A stretch of DNA of 43,994 nt from a virus: positions 1 through 43,994 of the IMG/VR virus record IMGVR_UViG_3300046780_000195. One strand, written 5' to 3'. Of this stretch, positions 7,745-43,522 are shown piece by piece (positions within the stretch are counted from its first letter, which is position 1; every line of letters starts with the position of its first letter). Under the pieces are notes generated by a model. That model was given only the letters and a program-made list of their open reading frames with translations, searched no databases and was not told the origin of the DNA. Both the position numbers and the translations under genes were made by a program.

Positions 7745-7748
7745 GTGA

Positions 7749-8555: not shown

Positions 8556-9699
8556 TGGCCCGCTCCATGATGCCGCTCAGGAAGTTACTCTTCACCGCGA
8601 GCTTGCCGCCGATCTCAACAACCTGCTCGGGATACTTCTTCCGTGCATCCTGTGCCATGATGCCGACGACCTTGGGATAGGACTTGCTATCACCCTTGTA
8701 GCGATAGGCATAGAGCGGGAGGTCCGTCTCCTCGTCCTTGCCGATCTTCTCGATGTCGGTTTTCATTGTGCGGTCGGACAATAGCGGAGCGATACTGCCT
8801 GCGATGCTTGCAAGAGAAGACAGGCCACCGAGACCCGTGAGCCATGGATTGCTCGTTGGTCCAGCACCGGTTCCGGTCGTGGTCTGCGTCTGGCCATAGG
8901 GCACCGAACCGACAGCCTGTTCCTGCATCTGTAACCGCTGCAAGGCGTCCTGCCATGGGGCGTTGCTTACCGCCTGCGCCTGTTGCTGCAACTGTGTCTG
9001 CCCGCCCAGCGCCGCCATGAGGCCCTGCAGGTTCGCCGTCTGCCCCTGTCCGGCGAGGTTGCCCAACTGCTGATTGGCTCCAAGCTGCAAGCCCGCTCCC
9101 GCCAAACCCGCCTGCTGGTTCAATCCCTGTGCCTGCAGGCTTCTGGCAAGGTCCGCCTGTGCCGCCGCCTGCGCCTGCGAGAAGTTCGCCTGATTGAGTT
9201 GCGCGCCAAGTTGTCCGGCATACAAACCTGACTGCGCATTGTTCACGCCCTCGGACACGCCCTGTCGGCTTCCCCCGAACGCTCCCGTCTTCGCAGCGAG
9301 ATCGGCCGTTTGATTGTTGGCCATCTGCCGCTGCTGATCGATCAGCGGCATCGTCTTGTCGATGACTTGTTGCGTGTAGGGATTCATATAGGGCGACAGG
9401 TCAGTGCCCGACAGCCAGCCCGGAGTAACTTGCTGCGGTTGATAACCTGCAAGAGCCTGCGTCCCCGCCTGCGCCGAGGCATAAGCCGGATTGGTGCCTC
9501 CTACGGCATTCTGCAGGCTCTGAATGTCCTGCTGGCCCGATTGCGTAATCGGCGCAACCTGATACTGCGGCAGTGTTGATGCGTAATAATGTGCCGCCCC
9601 GACGATGTTCTGCGAGGCATTGTTCAGCCAGTCGGGGAGCTGGACCTGGCTAGTCTGCGTCGTTTGCTGATTGCTGTTTCCTGCGGGCTTGCTAGGCAT
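8542..9699 (-). CDS. structural protein with C-terminal intramolecular-chaperone (Peptidase_S74-like) autoprocessing domain
   Basis: The C-terminus LLSDRTMKTDIEKIGKDEETDLPLYAYRYKGDSKSYPKVVGIMAQDARKKYPEQV fits the S-D-x-x-x-K chaperone-domain pattern of tail fibres and endosialidases. The preceding ~300 aa are Q/G/A/L-rich. Confidence 0.7.
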   Translation of the reverse strand: MPSKPAGNSNQQTTQTSQVQLPDWLNNASQNIVGAAHYYASTLPQYQVAPITQSGQQDIQSLQNAVGGTNPAYASAQAGTQALAGYQPQQVTPGWLSGTDLSPYMNPYTQQVIDKTMPLIDQQRQMANNQTADLAAKTGAFGGSRQGVSEGVNNAQSGLYAGQLGAQLNQANFSQAQAAAQADLARSLQAQGLNQQAGLAGAGLQLGANQQLGNLAGQGQTANLQGLMAALGGQTQLQQQAQAVSNAPWQDALQRLQMQEQAVGSVPYGQTQTTTGTGAGPTSNPWLTGLGGLSSLASIAGSIAPLLSDRTMKTDIEKIGKDEETDLPLYAYRYKGDSKSYPKVVGIMAQDARKKYPEQVVEIGGKLAVKSNFLSGIMERANGNS

Positions 9700-10069
9700 T
9701 GCTCACATCCTTGGAGTAGACCACTCCGATTTTCGTCCAGCCATACTTGGGCAGCACTCTGTCCCAACCCATTCGGCCGGTCATGATCATCTGCTTGCAG
9801 CCCTCTTTGCGGGCCAGCTTCTCCATCGCCGGGACGTTCTTCATGACTCCCGGCAGACGACCACCGGCCAGCCATGCACTGTAGTATCTCCCCTTTGGAA
9901 GCTGCATGATCTCGCCGATCAGAGCGCCATCGGCATTGTCGAAGATCTGGTAACGCCCGCTTTCCAGGCCATCGACCACGTCATCCCACGTATGATAATC
10001 ACCGGCATAGTGCAGCGCCTTCTTGATGCGCTCTATCTTCTGGTCGGGGGTGAGGGGTTCAGATTTCAC
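9692..10069 (-). CDS. hypothetical protein (125 aa); GNAT-like fold possible
   Basis: Start set at GTG 10069, because the upstream part of track ORF 9692..10225 overlaps the previous gene and looks out of frame. The sequence …LARKEGCKQMIMTGRMGWDRVLPKYGW is only faintly acetyltransferase-like. Confidence 0.45.
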   Translation of the reverse strand: MKSEPLTPDQKIERIKKALHYAGDYHTWDDVVDGLESGRYQIFDNADGALIGEIMQLPKGRYYSAWLAGGRLPGVMKNVPAMEKLARKEGCKQMIMTGRMGWDRVLPKYGWTKIGVVYSKDVSNA

Positions 10070-13120: not shown

Positions 13121-13578
13121 CCGGGGATCCATGAACCGAGCAGGAAAGTGGCTACCCAAAGGGTTGTCGAAATGGCCTTCACGGTAATGACCGAATAGGG
13201 CGAGTCGGACGATACGAAGCCACCCGCACTGGAGGCTATCTCCCCCAGGGTGATGATGTCCGAGCCATCCACGTCTATTTCCAGCGTCTGCGCCGCCGCC
13301 ACAATGAAGGTGTAAGTGAGTTGGACGATGGCAGGCGTAGGCAACGTCAGGACGACTGGCCCTGCCGCTCCAGCATTGCTGAATGTCCCCGTGGTCTGGG
13401 CTGCCGTCATGCTGTGGTTGGTCGTGTAGGCTGTATAACCGACCTGAAGGCCACCGAGATAGGACGCCAGCAGCGCGGGATTGGCCGAACTGGTGACGCC
13501 GTTCTGGACAATGGGAAATTTCTCGTCGCCGTTGATGACGGGAACGAGGTCCAATCTGGAAATGGGGATGCCGGTCAT
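13117..13578 (-). CDS. tail-fibre-like structural protein (153 aa)
   Basis: Start MTGIPISRLDLVPVINGDEKFPIVQNGVTSSANPALLASYL at 13578 (ATGA overlap). This N-terminal pattern (I..L…g.e.fPvvQnGvT) is common in phage fibre and spike N-termini. Confidence 0.55.
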   Translation of the reverse strand: MTGIPISRLDLVPVINGDEKFPIVQNGVTSSANPALLASYLGGLQVGYTAYTTNHSMTAAQTTGTFSNAGAAGPVVLTLPTPAIVQLTYTFIVAAAQTLEIDVDGSDIITLGEIASSAGGFVSSDSPYSVITVKAISTTLWVATFLLGSWIPG

Positions 13579-15281
13579 TGGGCTACTCTCGGGGTCCATG
13601 AATCGCTGTTGACCGGCTCAGGCGTCCAGATGTCCGGCGTTACCGGATGAGTCTGCCAATACGATAGTTGGATTTGGGCGCGATCAGGCAGTTCGGAAGC
13701 ATTCAGGACGATACCAACCGTGGTGATGGCAGATGCGGTGAACGCTGCCGTATCCGGGGATTCGGTGGCATTCAGGACAATCCCATTGGAAACCGTTGCG
13801 ACAAAGGCAGCGGTATCGGATGCCTCGATTGCCGCAAGGGTGGCAATATTAGCAGCGGACGCCGCCACGCTGAAATTGGCCGTGTCCTGAGCTTCCGTCG
13901 CCGCAAGGGCCACATCTGTCCGTGCGGCAAGAGCGATGGCCGAGGTATCTGATGCTTCTGTCGCCGCGAGCGTGACGCCGGTTTTCGCGGTGATGACAAT
14001 GGCCGTCGTGTCGGATGCTTCCGTCGCTGCCAGAGTTATCCCGGTCTGGGCCGATATGGCGAATGCTGCGCTGTCCTGTGCCTCGGTGGCCGCAAGCGTT
14101 GTCCCGGTCTTCGCCGTTATGGCTATTGCGGCAGTATCGGCGGCTTCGGTCGCCGCAAGCGTAACGCCAGTCTTTGCAGAGATCGTGAATGCTGCCGTGT
14201 CAGCAGCCTCGGTCGCCGCCAGGGTCGTGCCCGTCTGGGCAGTGATCGCAATCGCTGCCGTATCGGCCGCTTCCGTCGCTGCCAGTGCAACTGCGACATT
14301 GACGACGAAGGCGCCCGTATCCGCTGTTTCCGTGGCGGCCAGTGTTGCCCCGGTCTGGGCAGTGATGGCGATTGCGGCGGTATCGGCCGCTTCCGTGGTT
14401 GCCAGTGTGACGGCAAGACCAGTATTCGCCGTGTAAGTGATGACGATCAGCCCAGCGCCACCCGTGCCGGTATGCGAGGAAGCGTTATAGGAACCACGGG
14501 CACCGCCTCGGCCACCACCCCCTCCGCCGTAGACCGCACCGTCCCCCGCCGTCGAGAGCGTTACGCCGGTATTGGTGTTGGTGCCCGAACCGCCGCCGCC
14601 CGAACTGGCACCGGCTGTCGCTCCGCCCGCTGTAGCCGTCCATAGCGTAGCGGCCGTACCGCTCGTGCCGGTCGTTGGTGTGACATCGCCCGTGCCGCCG
14701 CCGCCACCAGCCGGTGAGCCACCATTGGCCGTGCCACCGCTGCCACCGGCTGTCGTCGCAGGATTGCTCGGCGAGCCGCCGATCCCGGTCGTGCCCGCAG
14801 CACCCGCGCCGCCTGCCCCGCCCAGATTCTTGCCACTCGAAGCGCCGCTGCCGCCGTTGCGCGCGGTCGTCTGGGTATAGACAACGGTTGGCGATCCAAG
14901 ATCGCTGACGGTGAAATTACTGCCGCCGTTGACACCTGAAGCATCTGCCGCCGCTGACCCGGGAATCGCATAAAATGCTCCCGAATTGGCGCTGCTGCTT
15001 CCCCATTGATTGCTGATAGTCGAACCACTGCCCCCCGCCCCCACAAGGAACGCAACCGTCGTCGTGCTGGGCGTCAGCGTGCCTGACGAATAGGTCATCA
15101 GCCGATAGGCACCACCCGCACCGCCGCCGCCGCCATTCGGCCCTGATCCCGTGGTTCCTATTGCCCCGGCGCCACCGTGACCTACACCTTCAACTGTATG
15201 GCCAGTCGCAGGCACTGGAAAATCGGCCGGTACTGTCCACGGTGAACTTGTTGCGGCCAACAGGAAGACGATGGTAGCCAT
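13575..15281 (-). CDS. glycine-rich-domain protein with about 12 tandem 21-aa repeats (568 aa), probable virion surface/tail protein
   Basis: The N-terminus …SSPWTVPADFP…GGGGGAGGAY…GGAGLIVITY resembles the phage glycine-rich domain. It is followed by repeats of the form LAATEAADTAAIAITAQTGTT. Confidence 0.7.
   Translation of the reverse strand: MATIVFLLAATSSPWTVPADFPVPATGHTVEGVGHGGAGAIGTTGSGPNGGGGGAGGAYRLMTYSSGTLTPSTTTVAFLVGAGGSGSTISNQWGSSSANSGAFYAIPGSAAADASGVNGGSNFTVSDLGSPTVVYTQTTARNGGSGASSGKNLGGAGGAGAAGTTGIGGSPSNPATTAGGSGGTANGGSPAGGGGGTGDVTPTTGTSGTAATLWTATAGGATAGASSGGGGSGTNTNTGVTLSTAGDGAVYGGGGGGRGGARGSYNASSHTGTGGAGLIVITYTANTGLAVTLATTEAADTAAIAITAQTGATLAATETADTGAFVVNVAVALAATEAADTAAIAITAQTGTTLAATEAADTAAFTISAKTGVTLAATEAADTAAIAITAKTGTTLAATEAQDSAAFAISAQTGITLAATEASDTTAIVITAKTGVTLAATEASDTSAIALAARTDVALAATEAQDTANFSVAASAANIATLAAIEASDTAAFVATVSNGIVLNATESPDTAAFTASAITTVGIVLNASELPDRAQIQLSYWQTHPVTPDIWTPEPVNSDSWTPRVAQ
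13662..14405 (-). repeat. in-frame tandem repeat, about 12 copies of a 63-nt (21-aa) unit
   Basis: Residues ~293-540 have L-A-A-T-E-A-x-D-T-A-A recurring every 21 aa (two units of 19 or 23). The antisense track ORF 13936..14436 shows the mirror periodicity (SAASVAASV…). Confidence 0.85.
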
Positions 15282-16317: not shown

Positions 16318-16944
16318 CTATCCGAAAGTGGCCATGCGGGTACGGATACGGGTCGTTGGCCGCTTGGCCCGCTCGCTTTCCAGTTTCATGTCATCGGTGA
16401 TCTTGTTGGCCGCGCCCGCCCATACCGCAATGCGTTCGTCGTCCTTCAGGAAGGGAGCCGAAGCCGCGAGAGCAGAATAGAGGTAGAGATCGGGCGACTT
16501 CAGCAGCAGCCAGTTGGACGTGTTGCTGACGGAGAGCGCGGGAATCTTGGCGTAGTAGCGGATGTCGTACGACACGTCTCCCGTTGGCACCGGAAGAACC
16601 TGGAAGGCACCATTCAGAATGGTATAGTAGCGGGTCGTGTTGGTGAGGCCGCTCGCTTCCAACTGGTCGAACTCTTCCTCGCCGACATATTCTAGGATCT
16701 GCATCCCCGCTGTCGGGTCTTCCAGCCTGAGCGTGCGCGTTTCCAGCCAGTCGGAAGGCACGGCCACGAGGTCAGCGCTGGAAGTGCCGTCCGAGAACAC
16801 TTCCATCTGCAGAACGCGCAGGGTGCGGTTGATCTGCGCTTCTCCGATGGTGATGAAATCAGGAATCTGCGCAACCAAATCTTGACGGTTAAGCCAGTCT
16901 GCCACCGAAGCCTTCAGGCCGGTATAGGTGCCATCAAGGGCCAT
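16318..16944 (-). CDS. putative head-tail adaptor / connector protein
   Basis: The N-terminus LKASVADWLNRQDLVAQIPDFITIGEAQINRTLRV resembles adaptor and head-completion proteins. It lies downstream of the capsid gene. The call rests on position and pattern only. Confidence 0.4.
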   Translation of the reverse strand: MALDGTYTGLKASVADWLNRQDLVAQIPDFITIGEAQINRTLRVLQMEVFSDGTSSADLVAVPSDWLETRTLRLEDPTAGMQILEYVGEEEFDQLEASGLTNTTRYYTILNGAFQVLPVPTGDVSYDIRYYAKIPALSVSNTSNWLLLKSPDLYLYSALAASAPFLKDDERIAVWAGAANKITDDMKLESERAKRPTTRIRTRMATFG

Positions 16945-17750
16945 CAGTCTGCTGCCTGCGGGCCATGCACGGCCTCCGCGATCATGTCCTTGTGGATGCC
17001 CTCGGCGCCGACGACACGCGGCGTCTTGGCAAACGGGATCACCGGCTTGGGTTCTTCCTTGTGCAGCTCGGTAACGACAGCGGCGTCGACCTCGGCACGC
17101 ATGGAGAGGGCTGCTTCGTCATCGACATGCTCATGGCCGAACTCGAAGATGCCGACATGGCGGACCTGTTTGGACAGGTCGTGGTCGATGAAGATGTCGA
17201 AGCCATAGCGTCCGGCGTTGATGCAGAAATAGATGTCCTCGCCCAGGGTGGTATGGTTCTTGACCGAATACTGGAACCAGAACATCGGCACGTCGGGCTT
17301 GTCGAGCTTCTTGAACACTGCCGCCGAGGTCAACATACAGCCCATCGGCGCACCCGTGACCCTCTCCAAGCCAGTCGAAGCCGCAAGCGTCGGAACGCGC
17401 CGCCAGAGTTTGCCGTCGTCTGTGAGCTGGAATGACACCGGCTCAGGAGGAACCTGTCGGGTGACATAGTTCGCGCAGACGATGTCCTTCTGGTGGGCCA
17501 GAAGACGAATCAATGTGTCCTTGGGGAAACGCATGTCCGTGTCGAGCCACAGTATGTGAGCGCAGCCCTCCGACATCGCCTCACGCACGAGATCAATACG
17601 CTGGTTGAAGATCATCGTGCCCTTGCTGACGTAGGATGCCAGTTCGATGTCGGGCCGATGGGCACAGGTGAAGCCGATCATGTTCGCCATATCGAAGGCG
17701 AAGCCGGTATCGACGATGTCCCGTGCCGGGCTCACCACAGCAAGTTTCAT
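16944..17750 (-). CDS. GT-A fold glycosyltransferase (GT2-like)
   Basis: MKLAVVSPARD… then ILWLDTDMRFPKDTL (DxD) … IVCANY … GAPMGCMLTSAAVFKKL … LGEDIYFC… follows the order of GT2-type motifs. Confidence 0.65.
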   Translation of the reverse strand: MKLAVVSPARDIVDTGFAFDMANMIGFTCAHRPDIELASYVSKGTMIFNQRIDLVREAMSEGCAHILWLDTDMRFPKDTLIRLLAHQKDIVCANYVTRQVPPEPVSFQLTDDGKLWRRVPTLAASTGLERVTGAPMGCMLTSAAVFKKLDKPDVPMFWFQYSVKNHTTLGEDIYFCINAGRYGFDIFIDHDLSKQVRHVGIFEFGHEHVDDEAALSMRAEVDAAVVTELHKEEPKPVIPFAKTPRVVGAEGIHKDMIAEAVHGPQAAD

Positions 17751-30232: not shown

Positions 30233-30715
30233 CTACGTAGGGACGTGCGTTGCTTGAACGTACGCTCTCCGCTTGCGCAGTTTGATATTGGTAACGTGCG
30301 CTCCAGAAATCCCATATTCGGCTGCCACAAGGTCGCGCTTGCGCCGGTCATTCCTGATGGCCAGAACCTGCGCTTCGCTCAGGCGGGCTAAATCTGGCCT
30401 GTTGCGACCCTTCAACCCACGTCCCTTGGCCGCCTTGTCCCGATGGTTGTCCAGATCTGTGCCTAGGAACAGATGACGTGGGTTTATGCAACGTGTGTTG
30501 TCGCATGTATGACAAACAAGCATTCCGGCTGGAATAGGCCCGTGGACCGCAATCCATGACAGGCGATGGGCACGCCATTGGCGACCCTCCCACCAAACTG
30601 CGCCATACATGCCTTCATGAGCTTTACCAGCTAGTCCGCCAGTCCAGTTCCAGCAGGCTTGCGCACCACCGCTCTGGTCACTGTATTTAGCCAGTTTAGA
30701 AACGATGCTGGTCAT
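30233..30715 (-). CDS. HNH homing endonuclease (HNH_3 type + HTH), copy 2 of 3
   Basis: CWNWTGG…YGAVWWEGRQWRAHRLSWIAVHGPIPAGMLVCHTCDNTRCINPRHLFLGTDLDN, then LSEAQVLAIRNDRR…YGISGAHVTNI. Confidence 0.85.
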   Translation of the reverse strand: MTSIVSKLAKYSDQSGGAQACWNWTGGLAGKAHEGMYGAVWWEGRQWRAHRLSWIAVHGPIPAGMLVCHTCDNTRCINPRHLFLGTDLDNHRDKAAKGRGLKGRNRPDLARLSEAQVLAIRNDRRKRDLVAAEYGISGAHVTNIKLRKRRAYVQATHVPT

Positions 30716-31577
30716 TCTTCGTGGGCTCGAAAATCAACGTCGGATCGTGAGCCTTGATATACGCTATTGCGGCCTTTTCGGCAGCCAAATAACGATCATC
30801 CAAGGGCGCGGGTCTCTCGATTTGGCGCACGATTTCTTCAGATGCCGGCAAGCCTGCTTCGTCACGTTTCTTCCACAGACCTACCAATTCCTCCAGATTT
30901 TTAGGCGTGGGAAGATCTAGCGTCTGACGGATAATATCAGCCATGTTCAGTCGCTCTAGACGGGTGATACCAAAATGGGTCCACCACAAATCCATTCGCC
31001 GCAAGCGCGGGTTCCATTTATTGGCTTTACTGGCGAAATTGATGGGCAGCATAGGTAGTCCGTTGCCCGTGATGAATGAATAAGTTTCGGATATGGCCGT
31101 ATCTGAAAACCACATGGGGTAACGCTCGTCGAGTAGGTGCCCGACCATCTCGAACCACCTGCGTCCGATGGCGAATAGCGTGGGTTGCCCCGGATTGGCC
31201 TGATCCTGCAAGCCGGCGATCTTCAGGTCTGCGTGCGTCCAGTCGTGGTTCCTCCATGCCCAGTCCAGGCAATGGTCCCAGTTCGGCGTGGCGATGATGC
31301 CGTCGTCGGGCAGGGTCAGCATCACCTCGGCGTCCGTAAGGGCAGCGCAGCGGTTCCAGCATGCGCCTACGCCAACGGGACGCACGTCAACGCTGATACG
31401 TGCGTTGTGCTGGATATGCGCCAGAACGCCGGTTGGCCAGCATTCTACGTCGTCCTCGTCGCACGCTACCACGAACTCAAGCATGTTCTCCCCCGTGGAC
31501 AACATGCGCAGCGACTCGATGATGCCGATCACGTTGCGTGGCTTGCCTCGGGTCGCGATAATCGCTGCAATCTTCAT
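30696..31577 (-). CDS. GT-A-like glycosyltransferase (293 aa)
   Basis: MKIAAIIATRGKPRN…FVVACDEDD…MLTLPDDGI gives a Rossmann-like start, an acidic DxD/DD motif and spacing typical of GT-A enzymes. The call is by pattern only. Confidence 0.45.
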   Translation of the reverse strand: MKIAAIIATRGKPRNVIGIIESLRMLSTGENMLEFVVACDEDDVECWPTGVLAHIQHNARISVDVRPVGVGACWNRCAALTDAEVMLTLPDDGIIATPNWDHCLDWAWRNHDWTHADLKIAGLQDQANPGQPTLFAIGRRWFEMVGHLLDERYPMWFSDTAISETYSFITGNGLPMLPINFASKANKWNPRLRRMDLWWTHFGITRLERLNMADIIRQTLDLPTPKNLEELVGLWKKRDEAGLPASEEIVRQIERPAPLDDRYLAAEKAAIAYIKAHDPTLIFEPTKNDQHRF

Positions 31578-31864
31578 TTGATGTCATAAAGTTGAACGGC
31601 TTCAGTGGCGGTATAGATGCGCGTGGGGTGTGGCCGTTCGCGATCTTCCGCCATCAGATTCTGGCTCTCGACGGGTCTCGGATGCTTCCTGCCGTCCCAT
31701 AGCACCATGTAATAAGCTGCTGGCTGCTGGTAGAAATCGAGGACCTTGCGGACCGTTCCAAAGCGCCGCCCCCAATGGCCAATCCGGGGATTGATTAAGG
31801 CCGCATCCGAGATCATTACGCGATCACCCTTCTCAAATACCACGGCTCTGCCCTCCATCGACAA
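31574..31864 (-). CDS. hypothetical protein (96 aa)
   Basis: Track ORF with an ATGA overlap with the downstream GT-like gene. Confidence 0.5.
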   Translation of the reverse strand: MSMEGRAVVFEKGDRVMISDAALINPRIGHWGRRFGTVRKVLDFYQQPAAYYMVLWDGRKHPRPVESQNLMAEDRERPHPTRIYTATEAVQLYDIK

Positions 31865-32537
31865 CGATATTGGCCCCGTTGACCAGACTCGCCCCCTCGC
31901 TGCACAGGAACGCCACCACGTTGGCCACTTCCTCCGGCGTGCCCATGCGGCCCAGCGGCAGTTCCGCCCCGCTCGGAGGCTTGCCTACGTCGATCTCGCC
32001 GGGTGCCACTGAATTGAACGTGATGCCGTCACGCGCCAGATAGCTCTGGCTTGCCAAGCTCTTCATCAGCGCCGTTTGTGCCGCCTTCGCCATCACGAAC
32101 CATGGGCGTGCGTTGCCATCCTTGCCGCCGAATATGCTGGTGATGGTGACGACGCGGCCCCATTTTTGGGCGCGCATATAAGGAATGGCCCATCGCGTCA
32201 GTTCGGCCGCCACTCCGGCATTTTTTAAATATACTTCCGTGCCCGTGGACAGCGCTGTTTCCTCAAATATCTCTGAGCCCCATCGCCCGCCGCCGCCAAC
32301 ATTATTGATTAAAATATCCGGGCGCACTCCGGTCATGGCCTCGCGCAGACTTTCTCTCTCCAAAACATCCACGCGCGTCGAACGCGACCAATTCTCCACC
32401 GTGCAGCCCTCACGACTCAGTGTTTCCATGATTGCACGCCCGATGCCCTTGCTGCCTCCGGTCACCACCGCGTGCTTGCCCGCCAGCCCATAGTCAACCA
32501 CCGAACGGAATCCCGCCGCCGATGGGCTCGCCCGCAT
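31833..32537 (-). CDS. short-chain dehydrogenase/reductase (SDR) family protein
   Basis: GKHAVVTGGSKGIGRAI (TGxxxGxG), INNVGGGG (NNAG-like) and …ITFNSVAPGEI… The start is uncertain: ATG at 32537 or GTG at 32501. Confidence 0.8.
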   Translation of the reverse strand: MRASPSAAGFRSVVDYGLAGKHAVVTGGSKGIGRAIMETLSREGCTVENWSRSTRVDVLERESLREAMTGVRPDILINNVGGGGRWGSEIFEETALSTGTEVYLKNAGVAAELTRWAIPYMRAQKWGRVVTITSIFGGKDGNARPWFVMAKAAQTALMKSLASQSYLARDGITFNSVAPGEIDVGKPPSGAELPLGRMGTPEEVANVVAFLCSEGASLVNGANIVVDGGQSRGI

Positions 32538-33018
32538 ATTTGTCGAACCGGATGTAATGCGGCGTTCTCGCCTCATAAGCCATCTTCACGCAGTCCTCGA
32601 CACATCCCCATTCAAATGGTTCGCAAACCGTCATGTTGGCGAGCGTCCGCATCAGTCCCAGATCCTCTGTTCCGTAGTGCGTCGGACCATCGCGCCACAT
32701 CGACGTACCGCCAAGTCCAAGAATCGTCACCGGAAGGTTCGGCAGGCAAATGCAGACCTTGATGAGTTCCCATCCGCGCATCAGGTGAGCGCATTGGCCA
32801 TAGGCAAATACCTTCTTGCCCGACGATGCGAGACCACCTGCGAGCGCCATCATGTTCTGCTCGGCAACGCCCACGTTGACGACCCGTGCAGGAAACTCCT
32901 CGCGAATGGTGTCGAGCCCCCACGCCCCATTGTCGTTGGTCAGCACGATGATGCCTGAATCAGCGCGCATCAGTTCGTGGACGACGGCGAATACGGCATC
33001 CCTGAAATCACGCGACAT
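32494..33018 (-). CDS. transketolase-like Pyr (pyrimidine-binding) domain subunit, lacking the usual C-terminal domain
   Basis: [20 protein letters not shown]…FPARVVNVGVAEQNMMALAGGLASSGKKVF…GPTHYGTEDLGLMRTLANMTVCEP…PHYIRFDK follows the Transket_pyr motif order. The protein ends about 120 aa earlier than typical C-terminal subunits. Confidence 0.75.
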   Translation of the reverse strand: MSRDFRDAVFAVVHELMRADSGIIVLTNDNGAWGLDTIREEFPARVVNVGVAEQNMMALAGGLASSGKKVFAYGQCAHLMRGWELIKVCICLPNLPVTILGLGGTSMWRDGPTHYGTEDLGLMRTLANMTVCEPFEWGCVEDCVKMAYEARTPHYIRFDKYAGEPIGGGIPFGG

Positions 33019-33580
33019 TGGGAAGTCCCTCCTCTTCGACTTCCTTGGGAATGCAGTCGGCATAGCGAGCCCACATCAGCGTGCGGGGGAGCGATGGAAT
33101 GAGACCGCAATGGTAATGGGTGTTGTCGGCCAGCCAAGCCGTTCCCCGAGGGCCATAGATTGGCTCAAGCAGGTCGTCGGGTCGCATATGGAGTTGAGCT
33201 GAATCAAGCGGTACGTCCGTTCCAAAGATGAACAGCGCCACGATTTTGGAACCGCCCCGATCACGATGCAGGCCATGCAGTCCGGGGAAGTAAGGCGTGT
33301 CTTTATTCGTGTAGAAGGCATTGAGACTCCATAGGTGTGCAGGGCAATCGAAGTATTCGCTGACCTTGGGAATGAAACCCTTGGCGTAGTCGAGGAAGTG
33401 AGGGGCGGCCATCACGTCCTCCATCGAATTGCATTCCATGCCGTTGCGTGGTCGCGCCTTGATGTGACCGGGATAGCGCGGGCATTGGTCGAGATGGTCG
33501 GTGACCTGCTTGATCCATGGCAAAACACCCAATCTTGCAAACCCGCAGCTTCGGAGATCCCGGATCATATGTGCTTCCAT
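33008..33580 (-). CDS. possible Fe(II)/2-oxoglutarate (PhyH-like) dioxygenase
   Basis: GLHRDRGG (HxD) … [14 protein letters not shown] … PRTLMWARY resembles the HxD…H…R facial triad and 2OG-binding arrangement. Support is weak and by pattern only. An alternative start is at 33568 (ATGA overlap with the HNH stop). Confidence 0.4.
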
Positions 33581-34047
33581 GAATGACGGGCTCTAATGTT
33601 GTGAACTTGAGATTTCGCTATTTTATAATCTTGAGCGATCTGAACGCAGGTACGTGGATCAGCTCGAATTGCCCTCACATCTGCGGCTGATATTTTTGAC
33701 GTTCCTACTCGTTCACCGCTAGTGTTTCGCGCCTTGGCATTTCGATCAGTCATATTGTCGGCATGTGTTCCCAAGAATAGATGATTAGGATTCACACATG
33801 ATCGGACATCACACTTATGGCAAACAAACATTCCTGCTGGAATAGGCCCGCGATGCGTTGTCCACGCTAATCGATGTGCTAACCAAGTTCTCCGCCCCCA
33901 ATTCAATTTGCCATATCCAACATTAGATTGATGGCCCAACCAGAGAAAGCAGCCGCTATTTGGCTCCGGCATGGAATCAATTTCCAATCTCTCAAATGCG
34001 GTACGGTATCGCATTGAAGATGTCCGTTTCGGACGAGCAACGCTCAT
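33565..34047 (-). CDS. HNH homing endonuclease (HNH_3 type + HTH), copy 3 of 3
   Basis: [20 protein letters not shown]…[43 protein letters not shown], then [12 protein letters not shown]…[20 protein letters not shown]. It looks AT-richer than its flanks. Confidence 0.85.
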
Positions 34048-34751
34048 GCCAGCGCCTTTCGTGCTTCAGCGATCTCATCGCCCTTTGGAATCTGATGGTG
34101 CCACTTGGGATTGCCCTCCATATAAGAAATGCCGCGCCCTTTGATCGTTCTTGCGACAATGCCCAAGGGGCGGCGCATATAAGGTTCGCGAGGCAATAGC
34201 CGCAATCTTAGCATCGAGATATTATGCCCACTCTCATCAAATATATCCCATCCGAAGGCCTGAAACTTTCGATCAAGCGGGCTAATATTAAGAATCTCGC
34301 CCGTGAAACTGGCACAAGCCTGTCCGTTGTCGTCAACGATGGCGATAAGGTTGCTGAGTTGATGATGTGCTGAGAACATCACCGCTTCCCATATCGCCCC
34401 CTCGTGCAGCTCGGCATCGCCCAGCACGCAGAATACCCGCCCCGGCTTGCCGTCCAGTTTGTTGGCCAGCGCCATGCCCGCAGCCATGCCGAGCCCCATG
34501 CCAAGCGAGCCGCTGCACTTGTGGGGCCAGCCCGGCCACATCGGGTAGTCGGGGTCGGGCCACAGTGCATCCAGCGTCAGATGGCCGTGCGTCTTGCTGA
34601 GAACCAGCCTGTCCTCGGGCTTCATCACTTCATGCAGGACAACGGCGATCTCGACCCATGACAGGGCGCTCGCAACATGGCCCTTGCCGTTCGCGAGAGC
34701 GGTTTCGAGGATGGTGCGGCGGATCTCTGCGGCCTTGGTTTCGAGGTTCAT
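34044..34751 (-). CDS. transketolase-like N-terminal (thiamine-diphosphate-binding) subunit
   Basis: [33 protein letters not shown] and [38 protein letters not shown] (GDG…EG…N TPP/metal motif). Confidence 0.85.
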
Positions 34752-34978
34752 GCGTCTCCACCTAATGCTCGCTCAATCCATAATTTGATGAGAACCTTTC
34801 CCATCACGCGATTCATCTGCTCATCCATTTCATCGTCTATTGGCAACACAATCGAAGATTCCATGACGAATCGCCGCAATGCGGAAACTGCCGCGTGGGC
34901 TTCAGCAAAATAGTCAGCGTTCCTTTTGGATTCGTGCGCGTCCTTGATTGCAGCAGCCATTTCTTCAATGAGTGTCAT
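34748..34978 (-). CDS. hypothetical protein (76 aa)
   Basis: Track ORF with ATGA overlaps at both ends. Confidence 0.5.
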   Translation of the reverse strand: MTLIEEMAAAIKDAHESKRNADYFAEAHAAVSALRRFVMESSIVLPIDDEMDEQMNRVMGKVLIKLWIERALGGDA

Positions 34979-35886
34979 GGTGCCCCCTCCAGCGCATCGA
35001 TGCGTGCCCGGTCGGTAAGCGTGGGGTTAGGGCTCCACTGAATCTGCGAGTAGCCTTCCAGCAGAAGGCTGCCGAAGCCGGTGCGATGCCCGCCGAGAGG
35101 CACAACTTCATTGGCAAAGCCGCGCCAGAAGCCGCGTGCCTCGTGGATCTTGATCGCCGTGTAATCAACAAGATTGGCGGGATCGTACCACTCCAGCATT
35201 GGCTCGATGTGGAAACACATCGCGGGTTGGCTGCGGCGCACGAACTCCAGGAAAGGCCGCCACCGGGTTCCGGTCTGCTCCATGGCACCAATCGTCAGCA
35301 CCGCTGAATTGGGCATGAATGGCTGGAGAGTATGAGGCTCGAAGAAATCGAACCTGCCGCCACCGATGTTGGGGAAATGGCTGCGCAGCCGGTCGATAAT
35401 CCTGAACGATGCATCGGCCCAGTCATAGCCATGGATGTGTTTGCCGGGAAACTCCTGGGCGAGAAACACGAGGTTGTGCCCGGAACCGCAGCCGAACTCG
35501 TAGATGTGGTCGAAGCCCGAGAGATAGCGCCGTGCGAACCAGCCCCGGAATACACTGTACCAATTGGCCTCGAACATCGGGTCAGCAGGTTCGATGAATT
35601 GTCCGTCGAGCCGCAGCACCTTGGCGGGGCGCAGGTATTTAGGCTCCAGCGCCTTGAGGTCGTCGGTGCGGCGGAAGTCCTCGAAATTCTCCTGCCAGCC
35701 TTTCTGCCAACGTCCGGTATTCTCGCCGGCAATCGAGAACGAGCGACCCTCCAGCCTGTGCAGCAGGTCGATCACGACGCTGTTGGATGCGTCACTGTCC
35801 AGCGTCTTGTAGCGCCAGTCGTGCGCCTTGATCTCGGCCTCGGTCTTGATGTCGAGTGGGCCGCCGAACATCTTTTCCCACTTCAT
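34975..35886 (-). CDS. class I SAM-dependent methyltransferase
   Basis: Motif I IYEFGCGSGHNLVFLAQ, followed by an acidic residue (HGYDWAD). Start MKWEKMFGG at 35886 (ATGA overlap with the upstream stop). Confidence 0.7.
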   Translation of the reverse strand: MKWEKMFGGPLDIKTEAEIKAHDWRYKTLDSDASNSVVIDLLHRLEGRSFSIAGENTGRWQKGWQENFEDFRRTDDLKALEPKYLRPAKVLRLDGQFIEPADPMFEANWYSVFRGWFARRYLSGFDHIYEFGCGSGHNLVFLAQEFPGKHIHGYDWADASFRIIDRLRSHFPNIGGGRFDFFEPHTLQPFMPNSAVLTIGAMEQTGTRWRPFLEFVRRSQPAMCFHIEPMLEWYDPANLVDYTAIKIHEARGFWRGFANEVVPLGGHRTGFGSLLLEGYSQIQWSPNPTLTDRARIDALEGAP

Positions 35887-36104
35887 GCCTGCTCCTTCTG
35901 GTAGCTTGCCCATACGCGGCGGCGCACAATCTCGGCAAAAGGCAGCGAAAGCGCCTCCGATTCACGCGATAGCTTGCCCAGCAAATCAGGCGGCCAACTG
36001 ACCGTCACCCGCGGCGACTGCAGCGTAGACCGCCCGCTGGTGTTGATCGTGCAGCCCTTGGCAAAGCCCTTATTACGGGAGAGGCGGCGTTTCACATCGC
36101 TCAT
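35883..36104 (-). CDS. possible ribbon-helix-helix regulator (73 aa)
   Basis: …PRVTVSWPPDLLGKLSRESEALSLPFAEIVRRRVW resembles the RHH strand-helix-helix pattern (rvtvslp.elle.ld…s.selir.a). Confidence 0.4.
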   Translation of the reverse strand: MSDVKRRLSRNKGFAKGCTINTSGRSTLQSPRVTVSWPPDLLGKLSRESEALSLPFAEIVRRRVWASYQKEQA

Positions 36105-36508
36105 GGCACCCTCGCCTTGCTGGCCTCATGCGGGAAACGCAATCCATTGCGGTGATACTTGCCTTTGTTGAAGGCTTTGGCGGCGAAAATCACCGTGTCT
36201 TCCGGCGCGATGTCGCCTAGAATGTGCCATGTTGCTTGCGGCCAAGTGTAATCAGGCTTGCCCCAAATCCGCACCGCGCTCCAATATTCGTCGCCTCGGA
36301 AACCGATGAAGTGAACGCAACCACCGACCACCAAGCAAGCCTCCGAACGACGCCAGCAAATCTCAGCCCATGACCAGCCCAAGCGTCTGCATTGAGCGTT
36401 CCAGTCAGACGCGCTGATAAAGAACTGTTCAATCTTCGGCCTGTGGATAGCAGGAGGCGCATCCTTCTCCATGCTCTTGAAACGCTCGATTGAACTTTGC
36501 CGGCTCAT
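36101..36508 (-). CDS. hypothetical protein (135 aa)
   Basis: Start MSRQSSIERFKSMEK at 36508 (ATGA overlap). This is the downstream part of track ORF 36101..36796. Confidence 0.5.
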   Translation of the reverse strand: MSRQSSIERFKSMEKDAPPAIHRPKIEQFFISASDWNAQCRRLGWSWAEICWRRSEACLVVGGCVHFIGFRGDEYWSAVRIWGKPDYTWPQATWHILGDIAPEDTVIFAAKAFNKGKYHRNGLRFPHEASKARVP

Positions 36509-36705
36509 GGCACGCGCTTCCTGCTGGCCTCGATAAACGCATACCAGTCCCTGAGAACCGGCGTGGCGTTCTGGATCTGCTTGGCCGTCCGTGCCGCCTC
36601 GGTTGCCTGGGTGATCGACCCGGTGCGGTGGTAGGGGTTGCCGGTCTTGTTGCCGGGCCACTTCGTTACGGGGCGGCGCTTGAAGAGGCTTTTCATGTTG
36701 CTCAT
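36505..36705 (-). CDS. hypothetical protein (66 aa)
   Basis: Start MSNMKSLFKRRPVTKWPGNK at 36705 (ATGA overlap with the upstream 49-aa ORF). Confidence 0.45.
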   Translation of the reverse strand: MSNMKSLFKRRPVTKWPGNKTGNPYHRTGSITQATEAARTAKQIQNATPVLRDWYAFIEASRKRVP

Positions 36706-36851
36706 TTCTTTGGTTCCATCTTTTCCCAAAGCGCCTCTGCCTCGTGGGCAATGTGTTCATCGACAATCTCTTGGATTTCGGCGTCGGTATATTCATTATC
36801 GCCCAAATCGAGCACGCCAGATTTCCGCTGAATTTCCCATTTGACTCTCAT
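36702..36851 (-). CDS. hypothetical protein (49 aa)
   Basis: Hand-read as MRVKWEIQRKSGVLDLGDNEYTDAEIQEIVDEHIAHEAEALWEKMEPKK, with AAGGAG 7 nt upstream. Confidence 0.45.
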   Translation of the reverse strand: MRVKWEIQRKSGVLDLGDNEYTDAEIQEIVDEHIAHEAEALWEKMEPKK

Positions 36852-38215: not shown

Positions 38216-38791
38216 TCATTGGGCCGCACCTCTAGCGATGCCAATCAGAAGATCGCGAAATGCCAAAGGGGAAGCGGCGCGTTCGGCATCTGGTAGCTGG
38301 GGTAGTTGGTTCTTTCCGAACCGACCGATCTGATGACTACCGCGAACATTTCGCCAATCCAGCGGCGGCGGTGCTGCGTCTCCGCAATAGAGCAACCACG
38401 TTCGCTTTTTGGCCCGGTGGCCATACGCCGCTTGATCGACTTCCGTCACCCAGTCGCCGTCGATCGTAAGCTGCCAGCCTCGAGAAGTGGGCTCAGGAAT
38501 GCGGTGGAAGCGAAAGGCCCTGGATTCGGCAGGATGCTCGAGAACGCCGCCATAGGTCCGCACGCTTGCCAACGCCGACGCGAAACAACCATCATCTTCG
38601 TTGATCTTCCAGCGCCACCGCTTATGATTGACCGCACTCAAAAGGTGCCAGCGGTCACAGGGCGGATGAGCCACCACCGGATACGGACCGCCGTATTGCC
38701 TAGCATCTCGCGTGCGATCCCAAGGATGAACGCCAACTACGCCGAAATAGCAGCCGCCAGTTTCCACAAAGAGAGCGGCCACATCAGTCAC
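38216..38791 (-). CDS. short, degenerate DNA C5-cytosine-methyltransferase-like protein (191 aa)
   Basis: VVAHPPCDRW (motif IV PPC), GGVLEHPAES (ENV-like motif VI), QAAYGHRAKKRTWL (motif VIII-like) and an altered motif I ALFVETGG (normally FxGxGG). No room remains for a target-recognition domain. Confidence 0.5.
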   Translation of the reverse strand: MTDVAALFVETGGCYFGVVGVHPWDRTRDARQYGGPYPVVAHPPCDRWHLLSAVNHKRWRWKINEDDGCFASALASVRTYGGVLEHPAESRAFRFHRIPEPTSRGWQLTIDGDWVTEVDQAAYGHRAKKRTWLLYCGDAAPPPLDWRNVRGSHQIGRFGKNQLPQLPDAERAASPLAFRDLLIGIARGAAQ

Positions 38792-39885: not shown

Positions 39886-39915
39886 ATCATAGGCATGGGA
39901 TTTTATCAAAGTCAA
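39886..39915 (-). promoter_or_regulatory. candidate promoter for the Cro-like gene (TTGACT-18-TATGAT), probably leaderless
   Basis: On the minus strand the -10 ends 5 nt before the ATG at 39880, and no Shine-Dalgarno sequence is present. Confidence 0.4.
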
Positions 39916-42298: not shown

Positions 42299-42602
42299 CC
42301 TCTCCACCACTGCCCGCCTCAAGATCTGGGAAGCTGCCGAAGGGCGATGCCATCTCTGCGGTTTGCAGATTCGCGGCAAGTGGGAAGTCGAGCATCGCAT
42401 CCCGGTCGCGCTGGGTGGGGCTGACGAGGCGGCAAACATGGCCCCCGCCCATATCGATTGCCATGCCGGGAAAACCCGCCAAGACGTGGCTGCCATTGCC
42501 CGAGCCAAGCGGCGCAAGGCAAGGTTCGTCGGTGCCAAGCAATCGAAGTGGCCCAAGTCGAAATGGAAACGCAAGGTTTCTGGCGAGACGGTGCTGCGGT
42601 GA
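42288..42602 (+). CDS. HNH nuclease (HNH_5-like, 104 aa)
   Basis: GRCHLCGLQIRGKWEVEHRIPVALGGADEAANMAPAHIDCHAGKT shows the C.lC…veH.iP…GG…Nl…H..CH..KT pattern. Confidence 0.8.
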   Translation: MRRSLSTTARLKIWEAAEGRCHLCGLQIRGKWEVEHRIPVALGGADEAANMAPAHIDCHAGKTRQDVAAIARAKRRKARFVGAKQSKWPKSKWKRKVSGETVLR

Positions 42603-43522
42603 AGCCCTTGGCCATTGACCTATTCTGCGGCCTCGGCGGATGGACGGAAGGACTGCTAGCCGAGGGTTACGACGTGGTGGGCTTCGACATCGAGCGGCAC
42701 CGCTATCCGGCTCGAGCGTTGCCGGATTCGGATGGGCGCAAAGTTGGGACTGACGGCGTCGATTTCAACAATCCTCGAGAAGGCAGCAGCAAGAACCGCT
42801 CCTTCAATTATGCCAACGAATGCCTTGTGCGTGATGCGCCGCTCACTGGCGGATGGATGGAATATCCCGCCCAGCTCGTCATTCAAGACGTTCTGACGCT
42901 GCACGGCAGGCAGTTCAAGGATGCCGCGCTAATCGTCGCCTCGCCGCCCTGCCAGGCCTACAGCTACCGCGCCATGCCATGGAAGCGGGCCAAGGCGCTC
43001 CCACCACCCGACAACACGCTGTTTGAAAGCTGCTTTCGCATCCAGCGGGAAGCGTGCGAGGCGGCTGGACGGCATATCCCGCTGGTGGTCGAGAACGTGC
43101 GAGGGGCGCAGAAGTGGGTCGGCCGAGCTCGCTGGAACTATGGCTCGTTCTATCTGTGGGGCGACGTGCCGGCGCTGATGGTCGCGAGGCCATACAGCCA
43201 TCAATCGAAATACGGGAAAATCTGCCTGTCGCCAGAGGAATGGCAGCGGGCGCAGAATGGCGAAGCGGTCGTCCATCCTCACAATGGCCGCAAGGCCCCG
43301 GCTGGTACGCAATGGTTCAACGATGGTCCCCGCACGCCGGACTCTCTCGCCTCCATGGGCGGCAAGAGCAAGGCACGCAAGGCGGCCAGCGCCATGATCG
43401 CCAAGATACCCCTGCCGCTGTCCAGGCACATAGGGCGCACGTTCTTCGATGCAGCCAATGGTCGGTGCGGTAGCGGTAATCCGCGCGTAGCCACAAATCC
43501 CCCTTCCAAAGGTGGCACATGA
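42599..43522 (+). CDS. DNA (cytosine-5) methyltransferase
   Basis: Motif I AIDLFCGLGGWTEG, motif IV IVASPPCQAYS and motif VI PLVVENVRGA. The GTG start forms a GTGA overlap with the HNH stop. Confidence 0.85.
   Translation: MKPLAIDLFCGLGGWTEGLLAEGYDVVGFDIERHRYPARALPDSDGRKVGTDGVDFNNPREGSSKNRSFNYANECLVRDAPLTGGWMEYPAQLVIQDVLTLHGRQFKDAALIVASPPCQAYSYRAMPWKRAKALPPPDNTLFESCFRIQREACEAAGRHIPLVVENVRGAQKWVGRARWNYGSFYLWGDVPALMVARPYSHQSKYGKICLSPEEWQRAQNGEAVVHPHNGRKAPAGTQWFNDGPRTPDSLASMGGKSKARKAASAMIAKIPLPLSRHIGRTFFDAANGRCGSGNPRVATNPPSKGGT

Follow-up and report, generated by a model that had tools for sequence, protein, structure and literature searches.

A modular gene island of uncultured SU10-like phages joins a PhyH-type oxygenase and a glycosyltransferase to a split-transketolase module and most likely serves glycosylation

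Introduction

Glycosylation of DNA, virions, and host envelopes by phages is already known. Here we describe a gene block that, as far as we found, is new in its composition: a thiamine diphosphate (ThDP)-dependent split transketolase (TK), a methyltransferase (MT), and a short-chain dehydrogenase/reductase (SDR), joined to a PhyH-type oxygenase and to a glycosyltransferase (GT) family seen on phage contigs only. The block occupies positions 30233-36104, on the minus strand, of a 43,994-nucleotide stretch of viral DNA (IMG/VR virus record IMGVR_UViG_3300046780_000195, positions 1 to 43,994). This whole stretch, called the window below, is essentially the complete genome, ~45 kb, of an uncultured SU10-like phage that is represented by metagenome contigs only; L-numbers (L001, L002, and so on) are the labels of the contigs compared with it. 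An earlier note, made from the sequence alone, had read the block as a nine-gene pathway for a tailored or branched sugar and leaned toward DNA hypermodification. We consider it most likely to be a modular phage glycosylation island, in which an unusual sugar would be made and then transferred to an acceptor.

Virion glycosylation by viral GTs is familiar from the capsids and tails of mycobacteriophages and from the capsids and fibrils of chloroviruses and mimiviruses, and pairs of a hydroxylase and a GT are familiar from base J synthesis (JBP/JGT) and from collagen lysyl hydroxylase/GT enzymes, including mimivirus L230. Like the island, the virion systems rely on viral GTs, sometimes accompanied by methyltransferases; the GT of the island, GT293, itself resembles giant-virus GT2-like proteins, and its homologs are found among capsid and fibre genes. 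To our knowledge, however, a ThDP enzyme or a PhyH-type oxygenase is a constant partner in none of them. The base J and collagen systems share with the island an Fe/2-oxoglutarate (2OG) oxygenase beside a GT-A-fold enzyme—translationally coupled to it in the relatives L025 and L026—but the oxygenase here belongs to the PhyH family and could act on the sugar rather than on the acceptor. The GtrABC and TarP genes of seroconversion and wall-polymer modification also include a phage GT-A of similar fold, and the present phage has a polysaccharide-directed tailspike; those genes, however, are prophage-expressed morons, whereas in the present case an integrase, a prophage copy, and a membrane component are all lacking. 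Virion glycosylation by phage-encoded glycosyltransferases is also mentioned in PMC11256854.

Phage clusters composed of a C5-methyltransferase (C5-MT), a 5mYOX oxygenase, and a GT (PMC8256090; bioRxiv 10.1101/2023.12.21.572611) likewise bring an Fe/2OG oxygenase together with a GT-A (or GT-B) enzyme and sometimes with sugar-activating or tailoring enzymes, vary among related phages, and have a GT fold related to TarP. They differ from the island in that its oxygenase is of the PhyH type, its MT is not a DNA methyltransferase, and no C5-methyltransferase (C5-MTase), ThyS, or ParB gene adjoins it. A split transketolase or an SDR is unreported in such clusters, and the word "transketolase" does not occur in the text of bioRxiv 10.1101/2023.12.21.572611.

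The remaining point of comparison is the ThDP-dependent branching of keto sugars, described for miharamycin, amipurimycin, the orthosomycins and aldgamycin (AviB1/B2-like enzymes), and yersiniose (YerE) (PMC12247030). For miharamycin and amipurimycin the proposal is that split-gene transketolases attach hydroxyacetyl branches to keto sugars, and E1-type enzymes have been proposed for C2 branching in orthosomycins and aldgamycin; the split transketolases catalogued so far come from Streptomycetes only, and their action on sugars is a proposal with no in vitro demonstration (PMC12247030). In these pathways, as in the island, a two-subunit ThDP enzyme lies by redox, methyl-transfer, 2OG-oxygenase, and GT genes. 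The parallel extends to L023, a cellular contig discussed below, which has both E1- and TK-type pairs, and to the orthosomycin enzyme AviO1, which is the top oxygenase match. They are, however, bacterial secondary-metabolite or O-antigen pathways, and the phage TK is shortened, without the C-terminal domain and the GHP loop.

Conservation and modularity of the island

The block consists of 11 open reading frames (ORFs) with hardly any intergenic space, the coordinates of which were all confirmed. Genes for a ribbon-helix-helix (RHH)-like protein, MT, the transketolase subunit TK-N, the oxygenase, the second transketolase subunit TK-C, SDR, and GT follow one another in this order, together with two small ORFs and two HNH genes. 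Profile and structure searches bore out the gene content and the tailored or branched-sugar toolkit that the earlier note had recognised. Its nine-gene pathway, on the other hand, resolves into a two-gene core, a portable MT-TK-SDR module, mobile HNH genes, and an RHH gene that belongs to the phage backbone.

The MT, TK-N, oxygenase, TK-C, SDR, and GT genes share their order, with 61-94% amino acid identity, in at least five independent contigs (L001, L002, L003/L018, L017/L029, and L031); the block is therefore no chance arrangement. Comparison of the gene contexts of these and other relatives shows, moreover, that the constant core is the pair of small PhyH-type oxygenase and GT293, and that MT-TK-SDR is a separable module. 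L019/L030 are nearly the same phage as the window by their large terminase subunit (TerL, 90% identical) and portal (89%), yet they carry the oxygenase and the GT alone. In L025 and L026/L027 (TerL 73% identical) a PF05721 PhyH protein overlaps a GT293 homolog (47-48% identity) at the equivalent genomic position, after the replication genes. In L012/L013, MT and oxygenase come ahead of a GT2-like protein, a GT41 enzyme, and a TPR-GT9 protein, and L021 combines PfkB, nucleotidyltransferase-like, and epimerase genes with MT, TK-N, TK-C, SDR, and TPR-GT9, without an oxygenase. Island content thus differs among near-identical phages—the pair, the pair with the TK module, the pair with several GTs—and offers natural comparisons that bear on the role of the glycan.

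Members of the oxygenase family (47 matches) and of the GT family (29 matches) were found on phage-sized or short metagenome contigs only, and pattern scans with the family alignments gave no confirmed match to either in 185,579 species genomes (GTDB). Since the families have no copies in these genomes and diverged phages have kept the block, it is neither a recent bacterial capture nor prophage cargo; the origin that the earlier note had set against its own proposal, an O-antigen fragment recently taken from a bacterium, does not fit this distribution. Among 50,697 GenBank phage records, megablast with the cassette and 25 kb of genome returned nothing but a 72% capsid match, and tblastn returned none for the oxygenase or the MT. 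The GT had a sole tblastn match there (25%, Pelagibacter phage HTVC008M), and TK-N matched at up to 37%, mostly to unannotated "phage" records that are possibly bacterial fragments. Literature searches found no described phage transketolase-glycosyltransferase system, and the statement of the earlier note that it could name no described phage system with this gene set stands for both the GenBank phage records and the literature searched.

The oxygenase and glycosyltransferase pair

The oxygenase gene (33008-33568, minus strand) encodes a PhyH-like 2OG/Fe(II) oxygenase of 186 amino acids (aa), or 190 aa if translation starts at 33580. Across an alignment of 41 family members the residues H105-x-D107...H157...R166, corresponding to the iron triad and the 2OG-binding arginine, are invariant, and the AlphaFold2 (AF2) model (pLDDT 97) has a double-stranded beta-helix fold. 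Foldseek matches to this model are led by AviO1 and include AsqJ, HygX, SnoN, GriE, and FtmOx1 (E 3e-8 to 1e-6, TMq 0.56-0.74); AviO1, HygX, EvdMO1, and SnoN among the structural matches act on sugars. By its modelled fold, then, the protein is predicted to be a PhyH-type oxygenase nearest to enzymes acting on small molecules and sugars. The family is near neutral in charge. Neither the window protein nor its L019/L020 homologs have a Pfam match, PF05721 included, and a search of PDB sequences with the family profile found nothing. Assignment to the TET/JBP (5mYOX) group was considered and rejected, as there was no Tet_JBP match at E up to 0.1 and neither TET/JBP nor AlkB proteins were among the top 50 Foldseek matches.

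In L025/L026 the GT homologs are preceded by a 166-aa PF05721 PhyH protein (39 bits against a cut-off of 22). These proteins have no detectable sequence similarity to the window-type oxygenase and are non-orthologous to it; hhalign aligns the motifs of the two in register, at a score that is not significant. A PhyH-type oxygenase is, in this sense, a recurrent partner of the GT293 family.

GT293 (30696-31577, minus strand; 293 aa) is a GT-A-fold glycosyltransferase and would carry out the transfer step. Its AF2 model (pLDDT 92) has Foldseek matches to PcManGT, WrtF, AvpGT (rank 3), RmlT, GalNAc-T2, GtrB, TarS, and TarP, and its top BFVD matches are giant-virus GT2-like proteins. Throughout the family R10, D40/D42/D43 ("ACDDDD"), and D91-D92 ("PDDG") are invariant, as DxD-type metal/nucleotide motifs, and all members are acidic (median isoelectric point, pI, 5.6; net charge ~-8). 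A PHROG match (phrog_14945 glycosyltransferase, 1.4e-5) agrees with the fold; no Pfam (Glycos_transf_2) or NCBIfam match was found. Homology of GT293 with a 283-aa protein of L012, or with the second GT described below, was also tried and was not significant by hhalign. A distant homolog (28%) in L042 (5927-10487) follows genes for a large TPR protein and a polyphosphate kinase 2, and a GT41-like gene lies downstream of it on the opposite strand.

The window has a second GT-A-like gene at 16944-17750 (minus strand; 268 aa), recognised by matches to Anp1 (4e-4), phrog_12406 glycosyltransferase (1.6e-4), and phrog_1574 (8e-16), and by a DxD-like "LDTDM" within "LWLDTDMRF". In the head module it has the SU10-type capsid and adaptor genes on either side, and MW202711, a record without the cassette, has a "putative glycosyltransferase" in the corresponding place, with 54% identity. 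In L038 a homolog of this second GT (29%) comes after two GT293-like genes. It is possible that the head-module GT is a partner of the cassette.

The methyltransferase, transketolase, and dehydrogenase module

The methyltransferase MT312 (34975-35913, minus strand) is a class I S-adenosylmethionine (SAM) methyltransferase of an uncharacterised family, with sub-threshold matches to Methyltransf_12/25/31/23 at residues 136-214; this SAM-binding region, around the GxGxG motif, is the sole one that scores. Compared with the PDB, the family profile recovers generic class I MTases and no DNA MTase. The family is large (816 representatives at 50% identity), and gene fusions occur in it: of the top 150 representatives 21 are long, and these include five TK-C::MT fusions (Transket_pyr+Transketolase_C), one MT::E1-alpha (E1_dh), one PfkB::MT, and one B12-radical-SAM::MT. 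The MT is therefore functionally tied to ThDP-dependent carboligases. Its homologs adjoin TK and SDR genes in L021 (66% identity) and L023 (36%), and the oxygenase gene in L012/L013 (33%).

TK-N (34044-34751, minus strand) is a shortened transketolase-like, ThDP-binding (PP-domain) subunit (PF00456, 1.2e-17). Its best PDB match, at 1.3e-38, is the N chain of 6YAK, the split transketolase of Carboxydothermus hydrogenoformans, and it keeps the ThDP/Mg2+ motif, with "LGDAELHEG...IVDDNG" aligning to the GDGE...DxN of split transketolases. TK-C (32494-33018, minus strand, the ORF extending to 33063; 174 aa) is the Pyr-domain subunit (PF02779, 2.4e-21), best matched over the Pyr domain alone by 6YAJ (3e-20); the cofactor-activating glutamate is retained, "GVAEQNM" aligning with "GIAEQNL" of 6YAJ. 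The SDR (31833-32501, minus strand, the ORF extending to 32576) has a classical FabG-like fold and FabG-type PDB matches; its scores exceed the cut-offs for both adh_short_C2 (7e-29, 101 bits) and adh_short (78 bits), and the cofactor motif "VTGGSKGIG" is present. The subfamily sampled in the window, L003, L021, L023, and L031 has a conserved NxxGGGGRWG motif. At the level of NCBIfam, nothing beyond domains could be named for the cassette proteins, every match being under its cut-off.

The closest cellular context retrieved was L023, a 77-kb metagenome contig in which TK-N, TK-C, MT, and SDR genes stand in a row, with 44%, 49%, 36%, and 48% identity to the window proteins, respectively. They lie in a polysaccharide locus that also encodes an ABC exporter, an NTP-transferase, a GHMP kinase, a NUDIX protein, an RmlC-like protein, epimerases/dehydratases, and GT87, as well as a second ThDP enzyme pair of the E1 alpha/beta type. 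The expectation of the earlier note that such a toolkit belongs in bacterial polysaccharide loci is thus matched by an actual locus with homologs of TK-N, TK-C, MT, and SDR. MT-TK-SDR is a portable accessory sugar-tailoring module of the bacterial polysaccharide-locus type, and the comparison gives a genomic handle on an uncharacterised four-gene bacterial module (TK-N, TK-C, MT, and an SDR with a Tyr-to-Phe substitution) that is backed by the gene fusions.

Some further observations concern relatives of the module. Nine more MT312 representatives have a helical, duplicated N-terminal domain in common, to which no function is assigned. Two family members of ~640 aa, P0216 and P0304, looked like oxygenase::MT fusions, by an N-terminal HxD...HQT...RVS pattern only; hhalign and PDB comparisons gave no support for this, and the candidates were rejected. 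In the IMG/VR contig L003 the MT312 homolog (8863-9783) has an in-frame stop just before the SAM-binding motif ("SEFD*IYEFGCGSGHN"), for which a pseudogene, an assembly error, and recoding are all candidate causes. L021, from a 58.6-kb SU10-portal phage, encodes at 6018-8007 a PfkB protein, a cytidylyltransferase-like protein, and an NAD-dependent epimerase, which resemble the HldE/HldD set of heptose activation.

A possible pathway

We infer from the gene content an order of steps and a set of substrates. A host-supplied activated sugar or sugar phosphate would first gain a carbonyl, which the oxygenase may supply by hydroxylating a carbinol carbon; the split TK would then move a C2 ketol (hydroxyacetyl) unit onto that carbonyl, yielding a branched or chain-extended sugar. 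The new keto group would be processed by the SDR-fold protein, the product would be methylated by the MT, and GT293 would pass the finished sugar to its acceptor. If the acceptor is a virion protein, the cassette would act jointly with the head-module GT, and relatives with other cassettes would be expected to show other virion glycans. The phage module fits the TK/E1 sugar-branching chemistry outlined in the Introduction, with the caveats of the TK losses, the low equivalog scores, and the phenylalanine of the SDR. If this chemistry is true, the branched or chain-extended sugars known from O-antigens and antibiotics are made by phages as well.

The following caveats count against this scheme. 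A 20-28-residue loop with the GHP histidine is deleted from TK-N in the window clade. The THxG histidine of TK-C is gone, "ATHAGLT" of 6YAJ being replaced by a DXS-like "LGL-GGTS". TK-C has also lost its C-terminal domain (PF02780) in this clade, where it measures 174-189 aa against 291-305 aa elsewhere (window 32494-33018 compared with L003 11598-12515 and L021 10879-11754); the L003 protein keeps ~125 further residues, alignable to the C-terminal domain of 6YAJ. The earlier note was right about a split transketolase, with the correction that TK-C consists of the Pyr domain only. Against the NCBIfam transketolase/DXS models all TK subunits score below the cut-off, with a best score of 162 bits against 488 (NF004559) and partial coverage of the model. 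In the SDR the catalytic tyrosine of YxxxK is an invariant phenylalanine, Phe135, preceded by Pro-Trp, in all five homologs aligned, from phages and bacteria alike; S122 and K139 are retained. Given these losses in TK and an SDR without its tyrosine, details of the proposed chemistry may be incorrect. The cassette is also missing a nucleotidyltransferase, and the sugar donor must therefore come from the host. The enzymes of the module are nonetheless presumably functional, since they are conserved.

Candidate acceptors

Of the acceptors considered, a virion protein, capsid-associated or fibre, ranks above DNA and above host glycans, and we favour it tentatively. The gene contexts of GT293 homologs point in this direction. 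In L035 and L036 a GT293 domain (42-46% identity) forms the N-terminus of proteins of 636-646 aa, followed by GT2 and TPR domains, and the fusion gene is located between the major capsid and tail-adaptor genes, the identities of which were confirmed against annotated phages; BLASTP found no similarity between the L036 capsid and adaptor and their window counterparts. Both loci encode collagen-like GXT-repeat proteins, by a gene that overlaps the GT start in L036 and by one downstream of that for the adaptor in L035. The GT gene of L037, which comes before the portal gene, overlaps a Gly/Ala/Thr-rich fibre-like ORF (634 aa) at the end of the latter. GTs that contain TPR domains are typically protein-directed, as in the OGT/GT41 and autotransporter heptosyltransferase families; the TPR-bearing GTs of sister cassettes therefore indicate protein substrates. 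The second GT, between the capsid and adaptor genes of the window itself and conserved in relatives without the cassette, was also counted in favour of a virion acceptor.

One candidate for glycosylation, put forward speculatively from its composition and sequence, is the Gly/Ala/Ser/Thr-rich (63%) repeat protein encoded at 13575-15281 (minus strand; 568 aa, pI 4.1). It has a Gly-rich N-terminus and ~12 repeats of 21 aa, of the form "LAATEAADTAAIAITAQTG.." (TRF period 63 bp); the gene product measures 507 aa in the sister contig L044, and the repeat number therefore varies.

There are also reasons to doubt a virion acceptor. The association with virion genes is seen for GT homologs of other phage lineages; in the present phage itself the cassette lies in the early operon beside replication genes and away from the structural genes. 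No collagen-like repeats (at least five GXY triplets) occur in the window. Finally, TarP is among the fold matches of GT293, and GT-A enzymes structurally related to TarP/JGT glycosylate phage DNA (bioRxiv 10.1101/2023.12.21.572611).

The last point leads to post-replicative DNA hypermodification, in which the oxygenase would hydroxylate a base (thymine, or 5-methylcytosine made by a C5-MTase), GT293 would glycosylate the resulting hydroxymethyl group, and MT-TK-SDR would supply an unusual sugar that shields the DNA from restriction or CRISPR. A two-gene core of oxygenase and GT-A suits a hydroxylate-then-glycosylate logic, parallel to JBP/JGT and TET/GT pairs, and the variation of cassette content among near-identical phages is what a restriction arms race would be expected to produce. 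The cassette ends the replication operon, DNA methyltransferases are nearby in several phages, and a DPPY DNA methyltransferase is inserted within the L029 cassette. There is published precedent for C5-MT/5mYOX/GT clusters that include further sugar-nucleotide enzymes (PMC8256090; bioRxiv 10.1101/2023.12.21.572611), and their GT-As resemble TarP/JGT and carry R...DDD motifs, to which R10 and D40/D42/D43 of GT293 and its TarP fold match correspond. Phage GT-As that act on 5hmC, together with accessory sugar-nucleotide enzymes, are likewise on record. The window, moreover, encodes a C5 cytosine DNA methyltransferase-like protein (42458-43522, plus strand; PF00145 1.2e-5, 25.3 bits against a cut-off of 22), with a TIGR00675 score far under the cut-off. 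This gene, however, is not adjacent: it belongs to the opposite-strand operon, ~6 kb from the cassette, and the MTases of sister phages that bear the oxygenase are instead of the N6/N4 kind. In fold the oxygenase belongs with PhyH rather than with TET/JBP or AlkB, and Pfam places its L025/L026 counterparts in PhyH; a thymidylate-synthase homolog, a 5mYOX, or a TET/JBP domain was found nowhere in the ~45-kb genome (precomputed Pfam annotation of every called gene and our own scans), and ParB is not recorded among its annotations. The GT family is acidic throughout and the oxygenase family near neutral, GT homologs reside among capsid and fibre genes or are fused to TPR domains, and the phage is without a DNA polymerase of its own. 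Between its PhyH-type oxygenase, the missing ThyS and 5mYOX, the distant C5-MTase, the acidic GT, and the virion-gene contexts, the leaning of the earlier note toward DNA gained no positive evidence, and we regard a DNA acceptor as unlikely. The more specific proposal, that oxygenase and GT-A constitute a TET/JBP-independent route to glycosylated bases, here with a C2-branched or chain-extended methylated sugar, seems to us somewhat less likely still; such a route to DNA hypermodification, if true, would be far more surprising.

Modification of the host envelope polysaccharide (O-antigen, capsule, or exopolysaccharide) is similarly improbable in our estimation. GT293 would here add the branched sugar to a lipid-linked or nascent glycan and so alter the receptor of this phage or of its competitors. 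Phage-encoded seroconversion is well established; the beta-helix tailspike makes a polysaccharide receptor probable; MT-TK-SDR has its closest cellular homologs in a polysaccharide locus with an ABC exporter; and the wall-polymer or lipid-carrier GTs GtrB, TarS, TarP, and RmlT are among the fold relatives of GT293. Yet there is no integrase, as the earlier note had already observed and as the ~45-kb genome confirms, and neither the oxygenase nor the GT family has a prophage copy in the 185,579 species genomes, so that classical lysogenic conversion is unlikely. The cassette, moreover, has no membrane, flippase, or polymerase component, remodelling of the surface within one lytic cycle has little obvious gain, and elsewhere GT homologs are embedded in virion modules. 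The least probable reading by far, in our view, is an auxiliary metabolic cassette without a macromolecular target, which would serve pentose-phosphate or sedoheptulose-7-phosphate flux or make a soluble modified sugar or nucleoside. Pentose-phosphate enzymes are known as phage auxiliary metabolic genes, the L021 module comes with HldE-like kinase/nucleotidyltransferase genes and an epimerase, as in heptose activation, and AvpGT, the third-ranked fold match of GT293, glycosylates a nucleoside. The TK, however, is always paired with MT, SDR, and GT, is without the canonical phosphate/substrate-binding histidines, and scores far under the transketolase equivalog cut-offs, and it is the GT that is the constant element of the island.

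Gene layout and genomic setting

The chained start-stop overlaps described in the earlier note were largely upheld. Exact ATGA overlaps occur at five junctions (upstream gene/RHH, MT/orf76, orf76/TK-N, TK-N/HNH_a, and orf96/GT), and the HNH_a/oxygenase junction is another given an oxygenase start at 33568, the one chosen by the JGI gene caller (186 aa). The remaining junctions become short overlaps once likely internal start codons are taken. TK-C most likely starts at 33018 (174 aa), a site with GAGGAGG upstream and an 11-nt overlap, and the most likely SDR starts are GTG 32501 (GTGGTTGA) or ATG 32537. The chain is probably interrupted between the SDR gene and orf96 (31574-31816, minus strand): this small basic ORF probably has 80 aa from 31816 (96 aa from TTG 31864), in which case it does not overlap the SDR gene. 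It is not conserved in L003 or L017. The small acidic orf76 (34748-34978, minus strand) was seen only in L001 and identical contigs and had no family match above threshold.

Both HNH_3 endonuclease genes are mobile, homing-type insertions, as they are missing from sister phages. HNH_a (33565-34047, minus strand; PF13392 1.3e-16, phrog_1872) occupies the TK-N/oxygenase junction, where L001, L002, and L003 have no HNH gene and TK-N abuts the oxygenase gene, and where L029 (5228-5905) has a DPPY (N6/N4-type) DNA methyltransferase in its place; the junction is therefore an insertion hot spot. The second gene (30233-30715, minus strand; phrog_1872 1.9e-30) follows GT293 and is missing at that position from L001-L003. 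HNH_3 genes are polymorphic in presence among near-identical phages, and the sister contig L044 carries another HNH gene after its capsid gene (8363-8785). The RHH-like gene (35883-36104, minus strand), recognised by its sequence pattern, encodes a small basic protein (pI 10.9) without a family match in Pfam or PHROG-type scans. The earlier note had counted it in the cassette. Homologs with 48-70% identity exist in L003, L012, and L013, and in L003 the gene stands ~1.8 kb away, not next to the MT gene; being conserved and not always adjoining the cassette, it belongs to the phage backbone and is possibly a regulator.

Among the genes of the phage are SU10-type portal, capsid, and adaptor genes and a terminase gene; a pectate-lyase-type beta-helix tailspike is also encoded. 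The early genes are lambdoid in style, with a replication-initiator/primosomal-type protein, ERF, NinB, and VRR-NUC. The deposited phages closest to it are uncultured ones from freshwater, along with Sinorhizobium phage phiM5 (portal 42% identity); tRNA genes, sought as a clue to the host, are absent from the window. The best sigma-70-like promoter match, by consensus only, is TTGACT-18-TATGAT (10/12) at 39886-39915 on the minus strand, upstream of the Cro-like gene. Because of this promoter-like site, and because no convincing terminator lies between it and the cassette, the cassette is plausibly the tail of the minus-strand early operon, the whole of which the site may drive.

Two ORFs upstream of the cassette deserve mention. 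The 191-aa ORF at 38216-38791 (minus strand), which the earlier note had taken for a C5-MTase-like gene, matches phrog_12600 (unknown function, 3e-51), is 76% identical in L013, and has no Pfam or NCBIfam match; the actual C5-MTase-like gene is the one at 42458-43522 on the plus strand. Upstream of the RHH gene, the 231-aa maximal ORF at 36101-36796 (minus strand) is split by the JGI gene caller into genes of 66 and 135 aa, and near the matching position in the sister loci of L012 and L021 there is a PF27050 (Phage_P22_Y8K6) gene of like size.

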